DNA from: an uncultured Pseudomonadota bacterium
Lineage (GTDB): Bacteria; Oederibacteriota; Muellerivitia; Muellerivitales; Muellerivitaceae
Direction of reading: 5' to 3'
Length of the DNA: 37,696 nucleotides
Assembly: GCA_963843375.1 (NCBI GenBank)
Contig: CAWJKT010000031.1
Coordinates: forward strand, 1-37,696
In this document: piece by piece, positions 18,001 through 21,000 of the stretch
How the letters are laid out: every line of letters starts with the position of its first letter
How positions within the stretch are numbered: the stretch's first letter is position 1
Made by a program: the position numbers

Positions 18001-21000
18001 GTCCAATGGCCCTGTCCAACCGCTCGCCCCTGACTTCATCGATAATTTTGAAGTCCGTGGACTTCCATCCGCAGACACCCGCCACCTGGGGCAAGAGGAC
18101 CTTGGCCAAAACGTAATAGGCTTCGCCTACCTGTACCGTGACATATTCAAAATCCGGGTGGACTGAAATCCCCAGGTTGGCTGGCAAGGTCCAGGGTGTG
18201 GTGGTCCAAATCAAAAATGACAGATTTTTTAAGGGGGTATTGGGAAAAACGCCTTTCGGAAGCTGTTTCACGGGAAAAGCCACCGTCACGGAAAGGGATT
18301 CGTGATCGGCGTATTCCACTTCGGCCTCAGCCAGGGCGGTTTTACAGACCGGGCACCAATGAATGGGGCGAAGCCGCCGGCTGACGTAACCATCCGAAAG
18401 CAGCTGGGTCAGCGCCTTCACTAGTGAAAATTCATAGGTGGGGTCCATCGTCATATAGGGATGGTTGAAATCACCGAAAATGCCCAGACGCTTGAACTCG
18501 TCCCTTTGGCGGTTAAGGAATTTCTCCGCGTATTTGCGGCACTCCTTGCGGATTTCAACCTTGGACATGGTCTTGGCCTTAGACCCCAATTGCTCCACCA
18601 CCTTATGTTCAATGGGCATACCATGGCAGTCCCAACCCGGCACATAAGGGGTATCGTGGCCCCGCAAAGCCTGGTACTTCACGATAATGTCTTTTAATAC
18701 TTTATTCAGGGCGTGACCCATATGTATGTCGCCGTTGGCGAAAGGTGGGCCGTCATGCAGGACATATTTGGGGGCCCTAGGTTTCTCGAAGGTCCGGTTG
18801 TAAAAGCCCAAATGGTCCCAGAGTTTTAACCTCTCCGGTTCGGTTTGGGGCAGGTTGGCCTTCATGGGAAAGGAAGTCTGGGTAATGTTGAGGGTTGACT
18901 TGTAATCCGCCATTTTTCGTCCAAATTCCTGGGATTTAAGACCGAAAGCTTATCAAATGCCCTTGGAAATGTTTAGTGTATTTTTGGCTGGTTTGGGAAG
19001 GAACCGGGGATTACAAATCACTTCTATCCATTCACCCGGAGGATTGAATTGTTCCCGCCCAATCCGTCATGGACATGCTCGGGGCTCGATGGATCGGAAA
19101 TCCATTCCAAATCATCCAAAACAAATTTGTAATGGTAGATACCGGGATTCAAGGAAATAATAAAACGGAAACTACCATCTTCTTGCCGGACCATAAGATC
19201 CGCGTCCTTATCCCAGTTGTTGAAATTTCCCACCAAGGAAACCTTTTGAAGCTCCTTTTGGGGCCGGTAGGTAATGGTAATCTTGATGGGCGGCTCAAAT
19301 GCCACGATCCGGTTGCGTCCCTGAGACTTGGCGACATAAAGGCTACTGTCGGCCTTCTTGACCAGATCCTCCTCATTGGACGCGTCCACGGGAAAGGTGG
19401 CGACTCCCCCTGAGACGGTGATCTTGGCCATAGGCTGGGATCGCATGTGATCAAAAAGAGTTTCAGCGATTCTTTGGCGGATTCTTTCTCCCAGTTCTGT
19501 AGCGCGCTTGCGGCTGGTTTCAGGAAGGACGATGACCATTTCCTCGCCTCCGTAGCGGGCGACAATATCCACTTCCCGGGCTTCCTGTTTGAGAATGGTC
19601 GCGATTTTTTTTAATACCTCGTTCCCCGCCGGGTGGCCATTAGAATCGTTGTATTTCTTAAAATGGTCGATATCCAGGATAACGAGGGACAAAAGACGGT
19701 GGTAGCGCTCGGCCCTGAGCCGTTCTTCTTTCAACCTTTCCAGGAAATAGCCGAAGTTATAAAGACCGGTTAAGCGGTCAGTAATGGCCATTTGCCTGGC
19801 ACGTTCATATAGTAGGGCATATTCGATCGCCAGAACATCCTGTGTGCCGCCATCCTCGCGAAACCGCATCGCTCCCTCGAAAAAGACAAGCCCCAATCGG
19901 TTTAACAGCATGGACACCTGGCTGACGGCGGGAAAATGGCCCGATATCTCGTGCTGGCCCTGGGGGCCCAAATCGACAATTTCACGCACGGCTTCACGCA
20001 CCGCATCCCGCATGGAGAAAAGGAGGAAAACCATATCGGTGGAAGATAACTGATGGTCCGTCTGGAGTTTTTTCAAATGGGCCAGTATCTGGCCAAACTC
20101 GTCGTCCACGGCCTGTTCCACGCTTCCCGACCTCTCCACCACAGCCACTAAATCAAAGAGAAGACCGCGCACCTCATAAAAAACACCATCGTTCCCGCTA
20201 AATCCTTCCAAGCGGTTGGACAATTGGCGGACTGAGGCTTGCCACCGGTCGCGAAGTACATGTTCCTTTTTTTGAAGAAACAAGGATAAGTTATTTTGTA
20301 ATGTGTCCATGAGTTTAATTTGTTCCATTATTTAAAAATGAGAAGGCGTGGAAGGGCGTGGAAAGCAGGATTTATTTTTTCAGCATCTTACCGTATAGCT
20401 CCATATATTTCCCTGCTGAAACATCCCAAGAAAAATCCTGTTTCATGGCGCGTTGGACAAGCTCTTTCCACAATTTGGGTTGGTGGAAAGCCTCCACGGC
20501 GCGGCGGATAGCAAATAAAAGTTCATTGCCGCGGTATTGCTCGAAGGCAAAACCCGTTCCCTTTCTCCCGTCCGGGGAGAGGTTTTCGACCGTGTCGGCC
20601 AAGCCGCCGGTCTTACGGACAATGGGGATGGTCCCATATTTCATGGCAATCATTTGGCCCAAACCACAGGGTTCAAACCGCGATGGCATCAAGAACAGGT
20701 CGCTTCCCGCATAAATCAATTTTGCCAGCCGGCTGTCAAACTTCAAGGTCACGGAAAACTTGGAAGGAAATTGGTGCCGCAACCCCTCGAACAGAGTGTG
20801 GTAACGGGTGTCGCCCGTTCCTAAAACCACGAATTGGACGTCCATCGCCAAAAAGTTTTCAGCGATTTCGCCAATAAGATCCAGTCCCTTTTGGTCAACC
20901 AGCCGGGAAACCAGACCGACAATGGGAACCTCCGGCTTAAAAGGCAAATCTAATTCTTCAACCAGTTTCTTTTTGGAAGCTGCTTTTTTTTCATGATTCT

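Follow-up and report, generated by a model that had tools for sequence, protein, structure and literature searches.

Why would a bacterium join a GGDEF enzyme to a glycogen-binding module and encode it directly behind its glycogen synthase? The many inputs known for GGDEF enzymes include light, oxygen, phosphorylation, metals and small ligands. The gene that raises the question lies in a 37,696-nucleotide window, the whole stretch of DNA analysed, from a member of an uncultured candidate phylum, and a genome-wide survey's note had read its product as a c-di-GMP synthase that sits on, or is switched by, the cell's own glycogen. The encoded protein has three parts:

19024..20328, minus strand: ORF of the three-domain protein, 434 aa
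19834..20328, minus strand: all-helical sensor-type domain, residues 1-165, weakly RsbR-N / non-haem-globin-like
19309..19788, minus strand: GGDEF domain, residues 181-340, by PF00990, TIGR00254 and PDB matches
19030..19254, minus strand: AMPK-beta-type CBM48, residues 359-433, with W372, K401, W409 and N427

The survey's description of this reading frame, with a GGDEF domain and a CBM48 on the same strand as glgA, is borne out by Pfam and NCBIfam profiles. The GGDEF region matches the whole of PF00990 (profile positions 1-161 of 161, E 6.6e-46, 156.5 bits against a cut-off of 23.8) and TIGR00254 (E 1.2e-51, 174.7 bits against 37.4), and its best PDB matches are the GGDEF enzymes 6zxm, WspR and PleD. 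The C-terminal module matches AMPK1_CBM (PF16561, hmm 10-80 of 85, E 8.3e-12, 45.6 bits against 26.8) and is the only module of this type in the genome. The public gene call is 428 aa and begins at Met7 (position 20310), as does the family alignment; this is the probable true start, giving a protein of 428 aa. As judged from its sequence the protein is cytoplasmic, with no signal peptide, membrane segment or hydrophobic N-terminus seen by eye, and for want of the first two a secreted or surface role of the CBM was dropped.

The fusion is neither a chance event nor an assembly artefact. Of 41 genomes sampled from the phylum, 27 have it (23 of the family's 25, and 4 of 16 outside), a wider spread than the 14 of 41 that the survey had counted, although it falls in three of ten families instead of the stated four of 16. 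The two genomes of the family that lack it are assemblies 85% and 63% complete. Both PF00990 and PF16561 are present in 118 of the best 120 database matches to the GGDEF region. The same three-domain build is found in 112 of these 120 family proteins, the eight exceptions being six fragments and two EAL-GGDEF-CBM forms; P0115 and P0250 have an EAL domain added to the GGDEF-CBM cassette. In other families of the phylum, the CBM and a GGDEF domain carrying an unusual Asn (see below) are retained together and the N-terminal domain is swapped. Because the cassette persists while the N-terminal domain changes, the pattern suggests that the CBM is the fixed partner and the N-terminus the variable input. 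Our literature search found no paper on a GGDEF-CBM48 protein and no description of a GGDEF enzyme with a storage-polysaccharide-binding module.

The nearest solved relatives of the CBM are those of AMPK beta1 and beta2 (1z0n, E 7.7e-7 over residues 361-432), and PF16561 is matched in all 20 aligned family members. Residues W372, K401, W409, L423 and N427 align with AMPK beta1 W100, K126, W133, L146 and N150, which the available portions of PMC4032982 and PMC2642990 name as carbohydrate contacts. The two Trp, the Lys and the Asn are kept in 118-119 of the 120 family proteins, with gaps making up the rest. The closest modules outside the family, among 46 scanned of 150, are tandem AMPK1_CBM/CBM48 repeats, several of them with GH13, GH57 or glucodextranase. 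Kept contact residues and relatives on alpha-glucan enzymes point, as the survey had proposed, to an AMPK-type glycogen-binding module.

CBM48 modules bind several alpha-glucans, and this leaves room for an incidental link to glycogen: the CBM could bind soluble malto-oligosaccharides or another glucan, or serve protein-protein contact or dimerisation, and the position next to glgA would then be inherited synteny. That L423 (the L146 equivalent) is variable and the T148 position is Gly would fit such a reading. A pure protein-interaction module, however, would not be expected to keep four carbohydrate-contact residues essentially invariant, as they are in the 120 proteins and across families, and for a protein that appears cytoplasmic, glycogen is the obvious alpha-glucan. 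The gene neighbourhood bears on the same question:

20372..21916, minus strand: glgA, glycogen synthase, ADP-glucose type by profile (TIGR02095 1.5e-172, PF08323 2.5e-87)
16208..18913, minus strand: ileS, the downstream neighbour (TIGR00392 2.5e-276)
21942..21969, minus strand: sigma-70-like promoter match upstream of glgA, 12/12 (TTGACA, 16 nt, TATAAT)

The glgA start is probably the ATG at 21895, with GGGAGA upstream. The promoter match is one to the consensus only, in a region where promoter-like sites are no more frequent than in shuffles. Between the glgA stop and the first ATG of the GGDEF-CBM48 gene we count 43 nt, or 61 nt to the Met7 start, where the survey had given 44, and the gap holds no promoter-like or terminator-like site. 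The gene order reported by the survey extends further than it had indicated: the GGDEF-CBM48 gene has glgA immediately upstream in all 17 family loci examined, and in 16 of these ileS immediately follows it. A search of RNA runs for the glgA-DGC stretch listed none that contains it. Co-transcription with glgA in the family is probable, but as a sign of functional coupling to glycogen the adjacency is weaker than the survey made it. It sits inside a nine-gene housekeeping block that is collinear in the family (ftsY-STAS-nucleotidase-glgA-DGC-ileS-lspA-lspA-lgt), functionally unlinked pairs included, and no fusion locus outside the family retains it. glgA is absent within 8 kb of the out-of-family loci L031-L033 and within 3 kb of a 55%-identical orthologue in L046, and in G026, G029, G033 and G039 it lies on other contigs or 670 kb away. 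As operon evidence the adjacency was set aside as weak, the entire block being collinear.

These facts of gene order favour an incidental link, but the gene content of the genomes runs the other way. All 27 fusion-bearing genomes have glgA, and the five genomes without a glgA match also lack the fusion; on the other hand, glgA also occurs in nine of the 14 genomes without the fusion. Weighing both, we regard an incidental link as quite improbable. Genes for glgB and a phosphorylase are also present in the genome. None of 26 genomes gave a canonical glgC at E<=1e-50, so that the glycogen pathway is not fully accounted for.

Does the GGDEF domain still work as an enzyme? Two of its motifs are needed here:

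19537..19551, minus strand: GGEEM active-site motif, residues 260-264
19567..19578, minus strand: RxxD inhibition site REVD, residues 251-254, five residues before GGEEM

The protein could instead be a nucleotide receptor or scaffold on glycogen with a catalytically inactive GGDEF domain. In favour of this, the canonical base-reading Asp is replaced (Asn236), the arginines of an N-R-R motif are lost, and the motif reads GGEE[M/L] in 111 of the 120 family proteins. Degenerate GGDEF domains that act as receptors, however, usually lose the metal, phosphate and transition-state residues and GGEE, and in this family these are invariant or nearly so. Residues D219, K224, N227, E262, K334 and R338 correspond to PleD Asp327, Lys332, Asn335, residue 370, Lys442 and Arg446 by an offset of 108 taken from equal-length PleD ranges in the PDB alignment, the PleD metal, phosphate and transition-state residues and Asn335 being those listed in PMC6629876; each is kept in 119-120 of the 120 proteins. 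The first four motif residues are invariant, and the fifth, although it varies (M 64, L 47, F 7, V 1, I 1), is always hydrophobic. The RxxD site has its Arg in 117 and its Asp in 119 of the 120. From this conservation the domain is probably catalytically equipped, and we consider an inactive one very unlikely. It resembles PleD and WspR in its full GGDEF profile, GGEE, the Mg, phosphate and transition-state residues, RxxD, and an N-terminal sensor with a helix ahead of the domain. It differs from them in having Asn for Asp, N-F-G for N-R-R, M or L at the end of the motif, an input domain that is not a receiver, and the extra CBM48.

The identity of the product is less secure than the survey's phrase "c-di-GMP synthase" implied, on account of two sites:

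19621..19623, minus strand: Asn236 codon, at the canonical guanine-reading Asp position
19750..19755, minus strand: Phe192-Gly193, replacing the RR of N-R-R (here N-F-G)

Asn236 aligns with the Asp of 6zxm, WspR (3i5c) and 3ign and falls at the position of PleD Asp344. It is Asn in 120 of 120 family proteins, and also in out-of-family GGDEF-CBM proteins and P0115. Position 192 is Phe in 119 of the 120 and Tyr in one, and position 193 is always Gly. The survey was right that the motif departs from the usual form in its last residue, but it overlooked Asn236 and Phe192. In a comparison with 93 further intact-motif GGDEF domains, a sample biased towards near relatives, Asp stands in 87 and Asn in six; 41 of the 87 Asp-bearing domains are non-Arg at the 192 position (H 19, F 8, Y 4, V 4, K 3, and one each of Q, S and a gap).

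A precedent for such a pair of substitutions exists in the Hypr enzymes that make 3',3'-cGAMP (GacA of Geobacter, Bd0367 and GacB), which likewise leave the I-site region and the remaining active-site residues intact (PMC6456294, available text). According to that text, Hypr GGDEF domains have Ser or Thr at the Watson-Crick-face position and have lost a cross-dimer Arg 44 residues upstream, GacA having Ser348 and Tyr304 at these two positions; 94% of predicted diguanylate cyclases retain Arg537; and in the known Hypr enzymes the cross-dimer Arg is changed to Tyr, Ser, Ala or Gln, with a motif that is exclusively GGDE[F/Y]. Phe192 also precedes Asn236 by 44 residues, and it is this shared spacing, instead of a direct alignment to GacA, that places it at the cross-dimer Arg position. 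The family has neither the canonical Asp of a GTP-specific diguanylate cyclase nor the Hypr pairing of Ser/Thr with GGDE[F/Y]; its own combination, Asn with GGEE[M/L/F], is one that the available text of PMC6456294 does not cover. Because the guanine-reading Asp is Asn clade-wide and Phe192 stands for Arg, both the use of GTP and a c-di-GMP product are uncertain. We continue to presume c-di-GMP; judging from the two sites, the product may not be, or not only be, that molecule.

Taken further, the family could be a new specificity class in the manner of Hypr, in which Asn236 and Phe192 accept adenine or other purines and give 3',3'-cGAMP, c-di-AMP or a mixture, with the enzyme still held at glycogen. 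We think this possible, if on the unlikely side. The near-invariance of both residues, where Asp is canonical and Ser or Thr marks Hypr, speaks for it, as do the sharing of Asn with out-of-family GGDEF-CBM proteins and P0115, its rarity in the biased comparison set of near relatives, and the chemistry of the Asn amide, which could pair either with adenine, at its N1/N6 edge, or with guanine, at N1-H/O6. The force of Phe192 is reduced by how often Asp-bearing relatives also lack Arg there, and Asn may merely weaken guanine binding without redirecting it. Literature searches, which did not reach the founding Hypr paper (PNAS 2016), found no characterised enzyme with Asn at this position, and bioRxiv preprint 10.1101/600031 makes no mention of Asn at the base-reading site. 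The RxxD site is retained, a PilZ gene adjoins one orthologue, and the genome already has a DAC-type c-di-AMP synthase, all of which count against a redirected product.

The survey had allowed that the first 180 residues might be the real sensor, and this suspicion gains ground: residues 1-165 are a conserved domain of predicted sensor type, matched by its own HMM in 112 of the 120 family proteins. The region is not wholly free of Pfam signal, as had been stated. RsbRD_N (PF14361) scores 22.3 bits in our protein (E 2.2e-4), under the cut-off of 24.3, and is found at E<=0.01 in 17 of 20 family members, at best 7.1e-7. Its likeness to RsbR-N, a non-haem globin, is weak. Among PDB sequences a family profile reached 2bnl at E 0.14, and a PDB sequence search with the N-terminal 184 residues gave no meaningful match. 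The AF2 model of the domain has eight helices (pLDDT 77.6); its top VIA structural match, 3zta_A (Z 8.5, 115 of 139 residues, rmsd 4.0), is tied with unrelated helical bundles, and Foldseek returned nothing at E<=0.001. A protein-atlas look-up with residues 1-165 scored just 0.84-0.86, 10-23% of the cluster members being labelled RsbRD_N, and is a lead only. Like the RsbR globin sensors (B. subtilis 2bnl, Moorella 3zta) and DosC/HemDGC, the protein begins with a predicted helical sensor, about 150 residues long, that leads into a linker helix, but its scores lie below or near thresholds, the domain has no invariant His for haem, and the output is fused directly, without STAS or a stressosome. 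The coupling of a globin-type sensor to a GGDEF output is an established design (PMC4976288, in the text available).

With a sensor-type domain in place, there is no need for glycogen to act as the switch, and the CBM may be only an address tag. Our preferred reading, held with middling confidence, is that the protein makes a cyclic dinucleotide, is anchored to glycogen through the CBM and takes its regulation from the N-terminal sensor. The enzyme would be soluble and probably dimeric, combining an RsbR-N-type helical sensor, a GGDEF domain with an RxxD product-inhibition site, and the CBM48. The CBM would most likely dock it on the cell's own alpha-glucan (glycogen) particles, the regulatory input would come from the N-terminal domain through the connecting helix, and the nucleotide signal would arise at the glycogen store or scale with it. 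In this family, where co-transcription with glgA is probable, the enzyme would appear at the same time as the polymer.

A closer parallel to AMPK would make the CBM itself the sensor, with its occupancy by glycogen, chain ends or branch points switching the cyclase allosterically, so that the store sets the nucleotide level. The AMPK, SNF1 and SnRK1 beta modules (1z0m, 1z0n, 2f15) share the contact residues, and in both cases, here by prediction, a signalling enzyme is attached to glycogen. The AMPK CBM exerts its effect by packing against a kinase lobe that belongs to a different subunit, a geometry with no counterpart in the GGDEF-CBM48 protein. Glycogen and branched oligosaccharides inhibit the kinase through this allosteric module, which sits on a separate scaffold subunit of the Ser/Thr kinase, and W100G/W133A abolishes the effect (PMC2642990, available part); here the module is fused C-terminally to a bacterial nucleotide cyclase. 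A short linker would suit such switching, the GGDEF profile ending at 340 and the first modelled CBM strand lying at 348, and so would a CBM that stays constant across families while the N-terminal domain is exchanged. The sensor-type domain and signalling helix in 112 of the 120 proteins, however, offer the usual route of GGDEF regulation, and the full-length model, which is poor (pLDDT 65.6, pTM 0.38), yields no inter-domain contact. We therefore consider direct glycogen sensing unlikely.

Should the enzyme be docked or switched on glycogen through its CBM, cyclic-dinucleotide signalling would take the carbon store, by its size or state, as an input or a platform, and bacteria would have an analogue of AMPK's glycogen sensing. 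It would also reverse a known direction of control. Streptomyces GlgX likewise ties c-di-GMP signalling to glycogen metabolism, but there, in the available text of PMC9530166, the nucleotide is the input and the glycogen enzyme the receptor, whereas here the glycogen-binding module is on the enzyme that makes the nucleotide. In eukaryotic starch metabolism, PTST1 and ZmCBM48-1 are likewise non-hydrolytic CBM48 proteins that recruit a partner activity to the glucan, and PTST1 is required for correct starch-synthase targeting (PMC6322578, in the part available). These are plant plastid proteins without a nucleotide signalling domain, and the likeness is one of functional analogy only. The clade-wide change of Asp to Asn offers a concrete handle for asking whether GGDEF specificities extend past the Ser/Thr Hypr type. 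The most far-reaching combination, a glycogen-gated GGDEF(Asn236/Phe192)-CBM48 clade forming an unrecognised specificity class with a product beyond c-di-GMP (e.g. 3',3'-cGAMP or c-di-AMP), and hence a counterpart of AMPK sensing with its own signal molecule, strikes us as improbable. The general weight of what we infer about function is limited by the distribution of the family, which, in agreement with the survey, has so far been seen only in the uncultured candidate phylum.

As for the signalling context, PilZ gives 15 matches in the genome, which also has about 16 GGDEF domains besides this one. A search of the genome for c-di-GMP-I riboswitches gave no match, but its control matched in no genome either, so that this negative says little. 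The PilZ gene next to the L046 orthologue adjoins it divergently.

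The three-domain protein is encoded on the minus strand of the window as a single uninterrupted frame, in which an N-terminal domain precedes a complete GGDEF domain and a glycogen-binding module:

19024-20328, minus strand: three-domain protein ORF, 434 residues, no internal stops
residues 181-340: complete GGDEF domain (Pfam E 6.6e-46, profile 1-161 of 161)
residues 359-433: AMPK1_CBM module (Pfam E 8.3e-12, 45.6 bits, gathering score 26.8)

As tested, the protein belongs to both PF00990 and PF16561, and the NCBIfam GGDEF domain model matches it at 1.2e-51. Its AMPK1_CBM match is the only one in the genome (a 4.05-Mb assembly, 80% complete). 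The public gene call of the identical protein has 428 residues, and every aligned relative starts at the Met7 column, so 20310 (Met7) is probably the true start. Inspected by eye, the sequence shows neither a hydrophobic N-terminus nor a membrane segment. The fusion of GGDEF to an AMPK-beta-type CBM48 described in the genome-wide survey's note is real and conserved. In a 41-genome sample of the phylum Oederibacteriota it occurs in 23 of the 25 genomes of the family Muellerivitaceae, three times split across contig ends, and in 4 of the 16 genomes outside the family, in total in 3 of 10 families. The two family genomes without the fusion are assemblies 85% and 63% complete, from which a glgA match is missing as well. 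Of the 120 proteins in a large collection that match the GGDEF region best (here the 120 family proteins), 118 carry PF00990 and PF16561 together and the other two are short proteins. Where the sources name family proteins, they go no further than ‘diguanylate cyclase (GGDEF)-like protein’.

Among solved structures, the CBMs of AMPK beta1 and beta2 come closest in sequence to residues 347-434 (1z0n, E 7.7e-7). Excerpts of two papers (PMC4032982, PMC2642990) name W100, K126, W133, L146, T148 and N150 of the AMPK beta subunit as carbohydrate contacts whose mutation lowers glycogen binding. One offset, 67, converts the chain indices of the 1z0n alignment (33, 59, 66, 79, 81 and 83) to these residues, and their equivalents in the three-domain protein are W372, K401, W409, L423, G425 and N427. 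W372 is present in 119 of the 120 family proteins and K401, W409 and N427 in 118 each, all exceptions being gaps; L423 is variable. When searched alone against 1.84 billion representatives, the module matched 7017 proteins at E<=0.001. Its relatives outside the family, as seen in 46 proteins scanned among the 150 matches listed, are tandem AMPK1_CBM/CBM48 repeats, several of them with a GH13 alpha-amylase, GH57 or glucodextranase domain attached. From the conserved contact residues, we read the module as a putatively functional alpha-glucan binder.

The GGDEF domain can be numbered after PleD with an offset of 108, as the alignments with 2wb4 and 9g85 cover ranges of equal length (query 176-343, chain 284-451). 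Six of the seven functional residues of PleD (Asp327, Lys332, Asn335, Asp344, residue 370, Lys442 and Arg446; PMC6629876) are kept, the equivalents being D219, K224, N227, N236, E262, K334 and R338, and the guanine-reading Asp is replaced by Asn. In alignments with the solved enzymes 6zxm, 3i5c (a WspR fusion) and 3ign, Asn236 faces the Asp of the G-H-x-x-G-D motif, and N-F-G of the three-domain protein lies opposite N-R-R or N-R-G. Asn236 and Gly193 are invariant in the 120 family proteins, Phe192 occurs in 119 (Tyr in one), and the remaining catalytic residues are conserved in 119-120. RxxD is similarly preserved (R in 117, D in 119), and the last residue of the GGEEM-type motif is M in 64, L in 47, F in 7, V in 1 and I in 1. 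The base-reading position is also Asn in GGDEF-CBM proteins from outside the family and in a variant architecture, EAL-GGDEF-CBM48 (database proteins P0115 and P0250, 691-692 aa); P0115 has GGEEV and a CBM 62% identical to that of the three-domain protein.

For comparison we used a further 93 GGDEF domains whose motifs are intact, taken from the same genome and 75 loci in other phyla, which were retrieved via shared peptide patterns and therefore bias the sample toward near relatives. In this biased sample the base-reading residue is Asp in 87 domains and Asn in 6, namely one membrane-anchored protein of the same genome, three cNMP-binding-GGDEF proteins with N-[F/Y/H]-G, and two others. The second Asn-bearing GGDEF of the genome (C11:380377-380871, minus strand) has N-H-R and GGEEF, is small, and has hydrophobic N-terminal segments and no CBM. 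The three cNMP-binding proteins, from loci L056, L086 and L098 of other phyla (domains recognized by Pfam in L056, by eye in L086 and L098), may be part of a wider ‘Asn-type’ GGDEF class.

According to excerpts of PMC6456294, the base-reading residue is Asp in canonical enzymes and Ser/Thr in the cGAMP-producing Hypr GGDEFs, in the latter invariably combined with GGDE[F/Y]. The same excerpts describe a cross-dimer Arg that stacks on the base and lies 44 positions ahead of the base-reading residue (304/348, 537/581). This Arg is conserved in 94% of the diguanylate cyclases predicted, and Hypr enzymes have another residue in its place. By that spacing (236 - 44 = 192), Phe192 would occupy the cross-dimer Arg position, which is non-Arg in 41 of the 87 Asp-bearing domains of the biased sample. 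The three-domain protein lacks the Asp of canonical GTP-specific cyclases and likewise the Ser/Thr with GGDEF that defines Hypr enzymes, which it resembles in the location of its active-site deviations. Judged from its residues, it is a GGDEF-family cyclase with all catalytic residues present and a base pocket predicted to be altered. Because of this pocket and Asn236 we do not file it as a canonical diguanylate cyclase, and this non-canonical cyclase domain is the point added beyond the earlier description. Asn236 would be the reason to expect a product other than c-di-GMP alone, which we consider rather unlikely. As to downstream receptors, 15 PilZ matches occur in the genome. A DAC-type c-di-AMP synthase is encoded there separately.

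For residues 1-180, left unexplained by the survey, there are weak signs of an RsbRD_N-like domain. Of 20 aligned family members, 17 give a Pfam RsbRD_N match at E<=0.01 (best 7.1e-7), and in the three-domain protein itself the match, on residues 17-114, falls slightly under the threshold (22.3 against 24.3 bits). A family profile reached B. subtilis RsbR (2bnl) among PDB sequences at E 0.14. The AlphaFold model of residues 1-165 is an eight-helix bundle (pLDDT 77.6), for which a structural search against representatives returned first 3zta_A, the N-terminal domain of stressosome RsbR (Z 8.5, rmsd 4.0, 115 of 139 residues aligned). As unrelated helical proteins follow at Z 8.0-8.5 and Foldseek with this model gave no match at E<=0.001, RsbR-N identity is plausible but not proven. 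The family alignment of this domain contains an invariant Ser-x-Glu-Gln-Ala-Val-Asp patch. It has no invariant His, which argues against haem. An HMM of the domain matches 112 of the 120 family proteins, and the eight missed are six fragments and two proteins that begin with an EAL domain. Elsewhere in the phylum, other families have the GGDEF+CBM cassette behind a different, unrelated N-terminal region, so the constant pair is GGDEF+CBM and the N-terminus is the variable part. It is in this N-terminal half that the protein resembles sensor-coupled GGDEF enzymes. The sole other RsbRD_N match in the genome is weak (C4:521929-522228, minus strand, 23.8 bits) and lies within a 751-aa open frame.

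Every gene between 14292 and 28658 of the window is on the minus strand, in the transcription order SMC, ftsY, STAS, UshA-like 5'-nucleotidase, glgA, three-domain gene, ileS, two lspA copies and lgt. One promoter-like site precedes glgA:

21969-21942, minus strand: sigma-70 consensus, 12/12, ahead of glgA (consensus match only)

A scan for promoter-like and terminator-like sites found none between glgA and the three-domain gene or in the 110-nt gap before ileS, and together with the match before glgA this would fit a single transcript. Among 17 family loci, each with 8 kb per side, glgA is directly upstream on the same strand in all 17 (gaps of roughly 40-260 nt) and ileS directly downstream in 16. 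The position just behind glgA, which the survey had emphasized, says little about coupling inside one family, because the entire nine-gene block is collinear, including pairs without any conceivable functional link. The four fusion genes from outside the family have glgA on another contig or 670 kb distant, and their neighbours encode a GH116 glycosidase, ExbB/ExbD, a methyltransferase and a rhomboid protein. In one of these loci (L031, 9428-11941, plus strand, from the closed genome G029) the GH116 gene, beta-glucosidase 2-like, is divergent from the GGDEF-CBM gene, which is followed by exbB/exbD. Around a 55%-identical full-length orthologue (L046), neither glgA nor ileS occurs inside 3 kb; a 137-aa PilZ-domain gene (2313-2726, minus strand) is divergent and ~270 bp upstream.

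glgA accompanies the fusion in each of the 27 genomes that carry it, and the fusion is missing from all 5 genomes in which glgA gave no match, a pattern that agrees with dependence of the fusion on glycogen; a further 9 genomes have glgA but no fusion, and genomes that are related do not count as independent cases. Besides glgA, the genome encodes glgB and phosphorylase. At E<=1e-50, none of 26 genomes (this one and 25 relatives, 18 of them >=90% complete) gave a match to canonical glgC (TIGR02091), despite an ADP-glucose-type glgA in 36 of the 41. The best NTP-transferase matches here score 121 bits (C29, inside an 872-aa frame) and 106 bits (C9). A glycogen phosphorylase match at C3:64901-67040 (plus strand) extends across several frames in five pieces, reflecting either a frameshifted gene or an assembly error, and a second, more distant phosphorylase-like gene (C9, 850 aa) adjoins a GH13-like gene.

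Starting from the observed three-domain build, conserved contact and catalytic residues and distribution, we propose that the enzyme would dimerise by way of its N-terminal bundle and of the helix leading into the GGDEF domain, since GGDEF enzymes have two nucleotides to join. The CBM would tether it to glycogen particles, and the promoter at 21942-21969 may drive its production together with that of GlgA. Activity would be set by the N-terminal sensor and output limited by RxxD. The likeness to the AMPK beta subunit would be that of a signalling enzyme attached to glycogen. AMPK is switched by glycogen occupancy, according to excerpts of PMC2642990, and occupancy might itself switch the present enzyme, which we regard as rather improbable; the sequence does not tell such switching apart from tethering. 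With tethering as the preferred reading, the survey's mechanism of a c-di-GMP synthase sitting on or switched by glycogen is plausible, though supported only in part, in that the CBM contacts are conserved, and its c-di-GMP product is put in doubt by Asn236. Our searches found no literature joining ‘diguanylate cyclase’ and ‘glycogen-binding’ and, by the titles and abstracts of the listed papers that mention GGDEF together with CBM48, none on such a protein; the papers found on c-di-GMP and glycogen concern GlgX as a receptor.

Two genes upstream of the three-domain gene, a 116-aa STAS anti-sigma-factor antagonist (23583-23933, minus strand) is 100% identical in a genome of the same genus. The gene is present in 16 family loci, with 85-98% identity in 15 of them. 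In the remaining locus (L022) identity is 66%; the genes flanking STAS are 42-88% identical, so STAS is far more conserved. The tandem lspA (signal peptidase II) paralogues (15084-15572 and 15569-16102, minus strand) overlap by 4 nt and are 52% identical; both copies occur in 15 of 17 family loci, with a single copy in L029 and L030, and L026 stops short of lspA. A 1453-aa ORF (2666-7027, minus strand) without a Pfam match is rich in imperfect tandem repeats with periods of 12-60, which account for the strong GC skew at 2-6 kb of the window. Positions 1-2000 have a G+C content of 70%, compared with 45-57% in the rest, and contain many overlapping ORFs.
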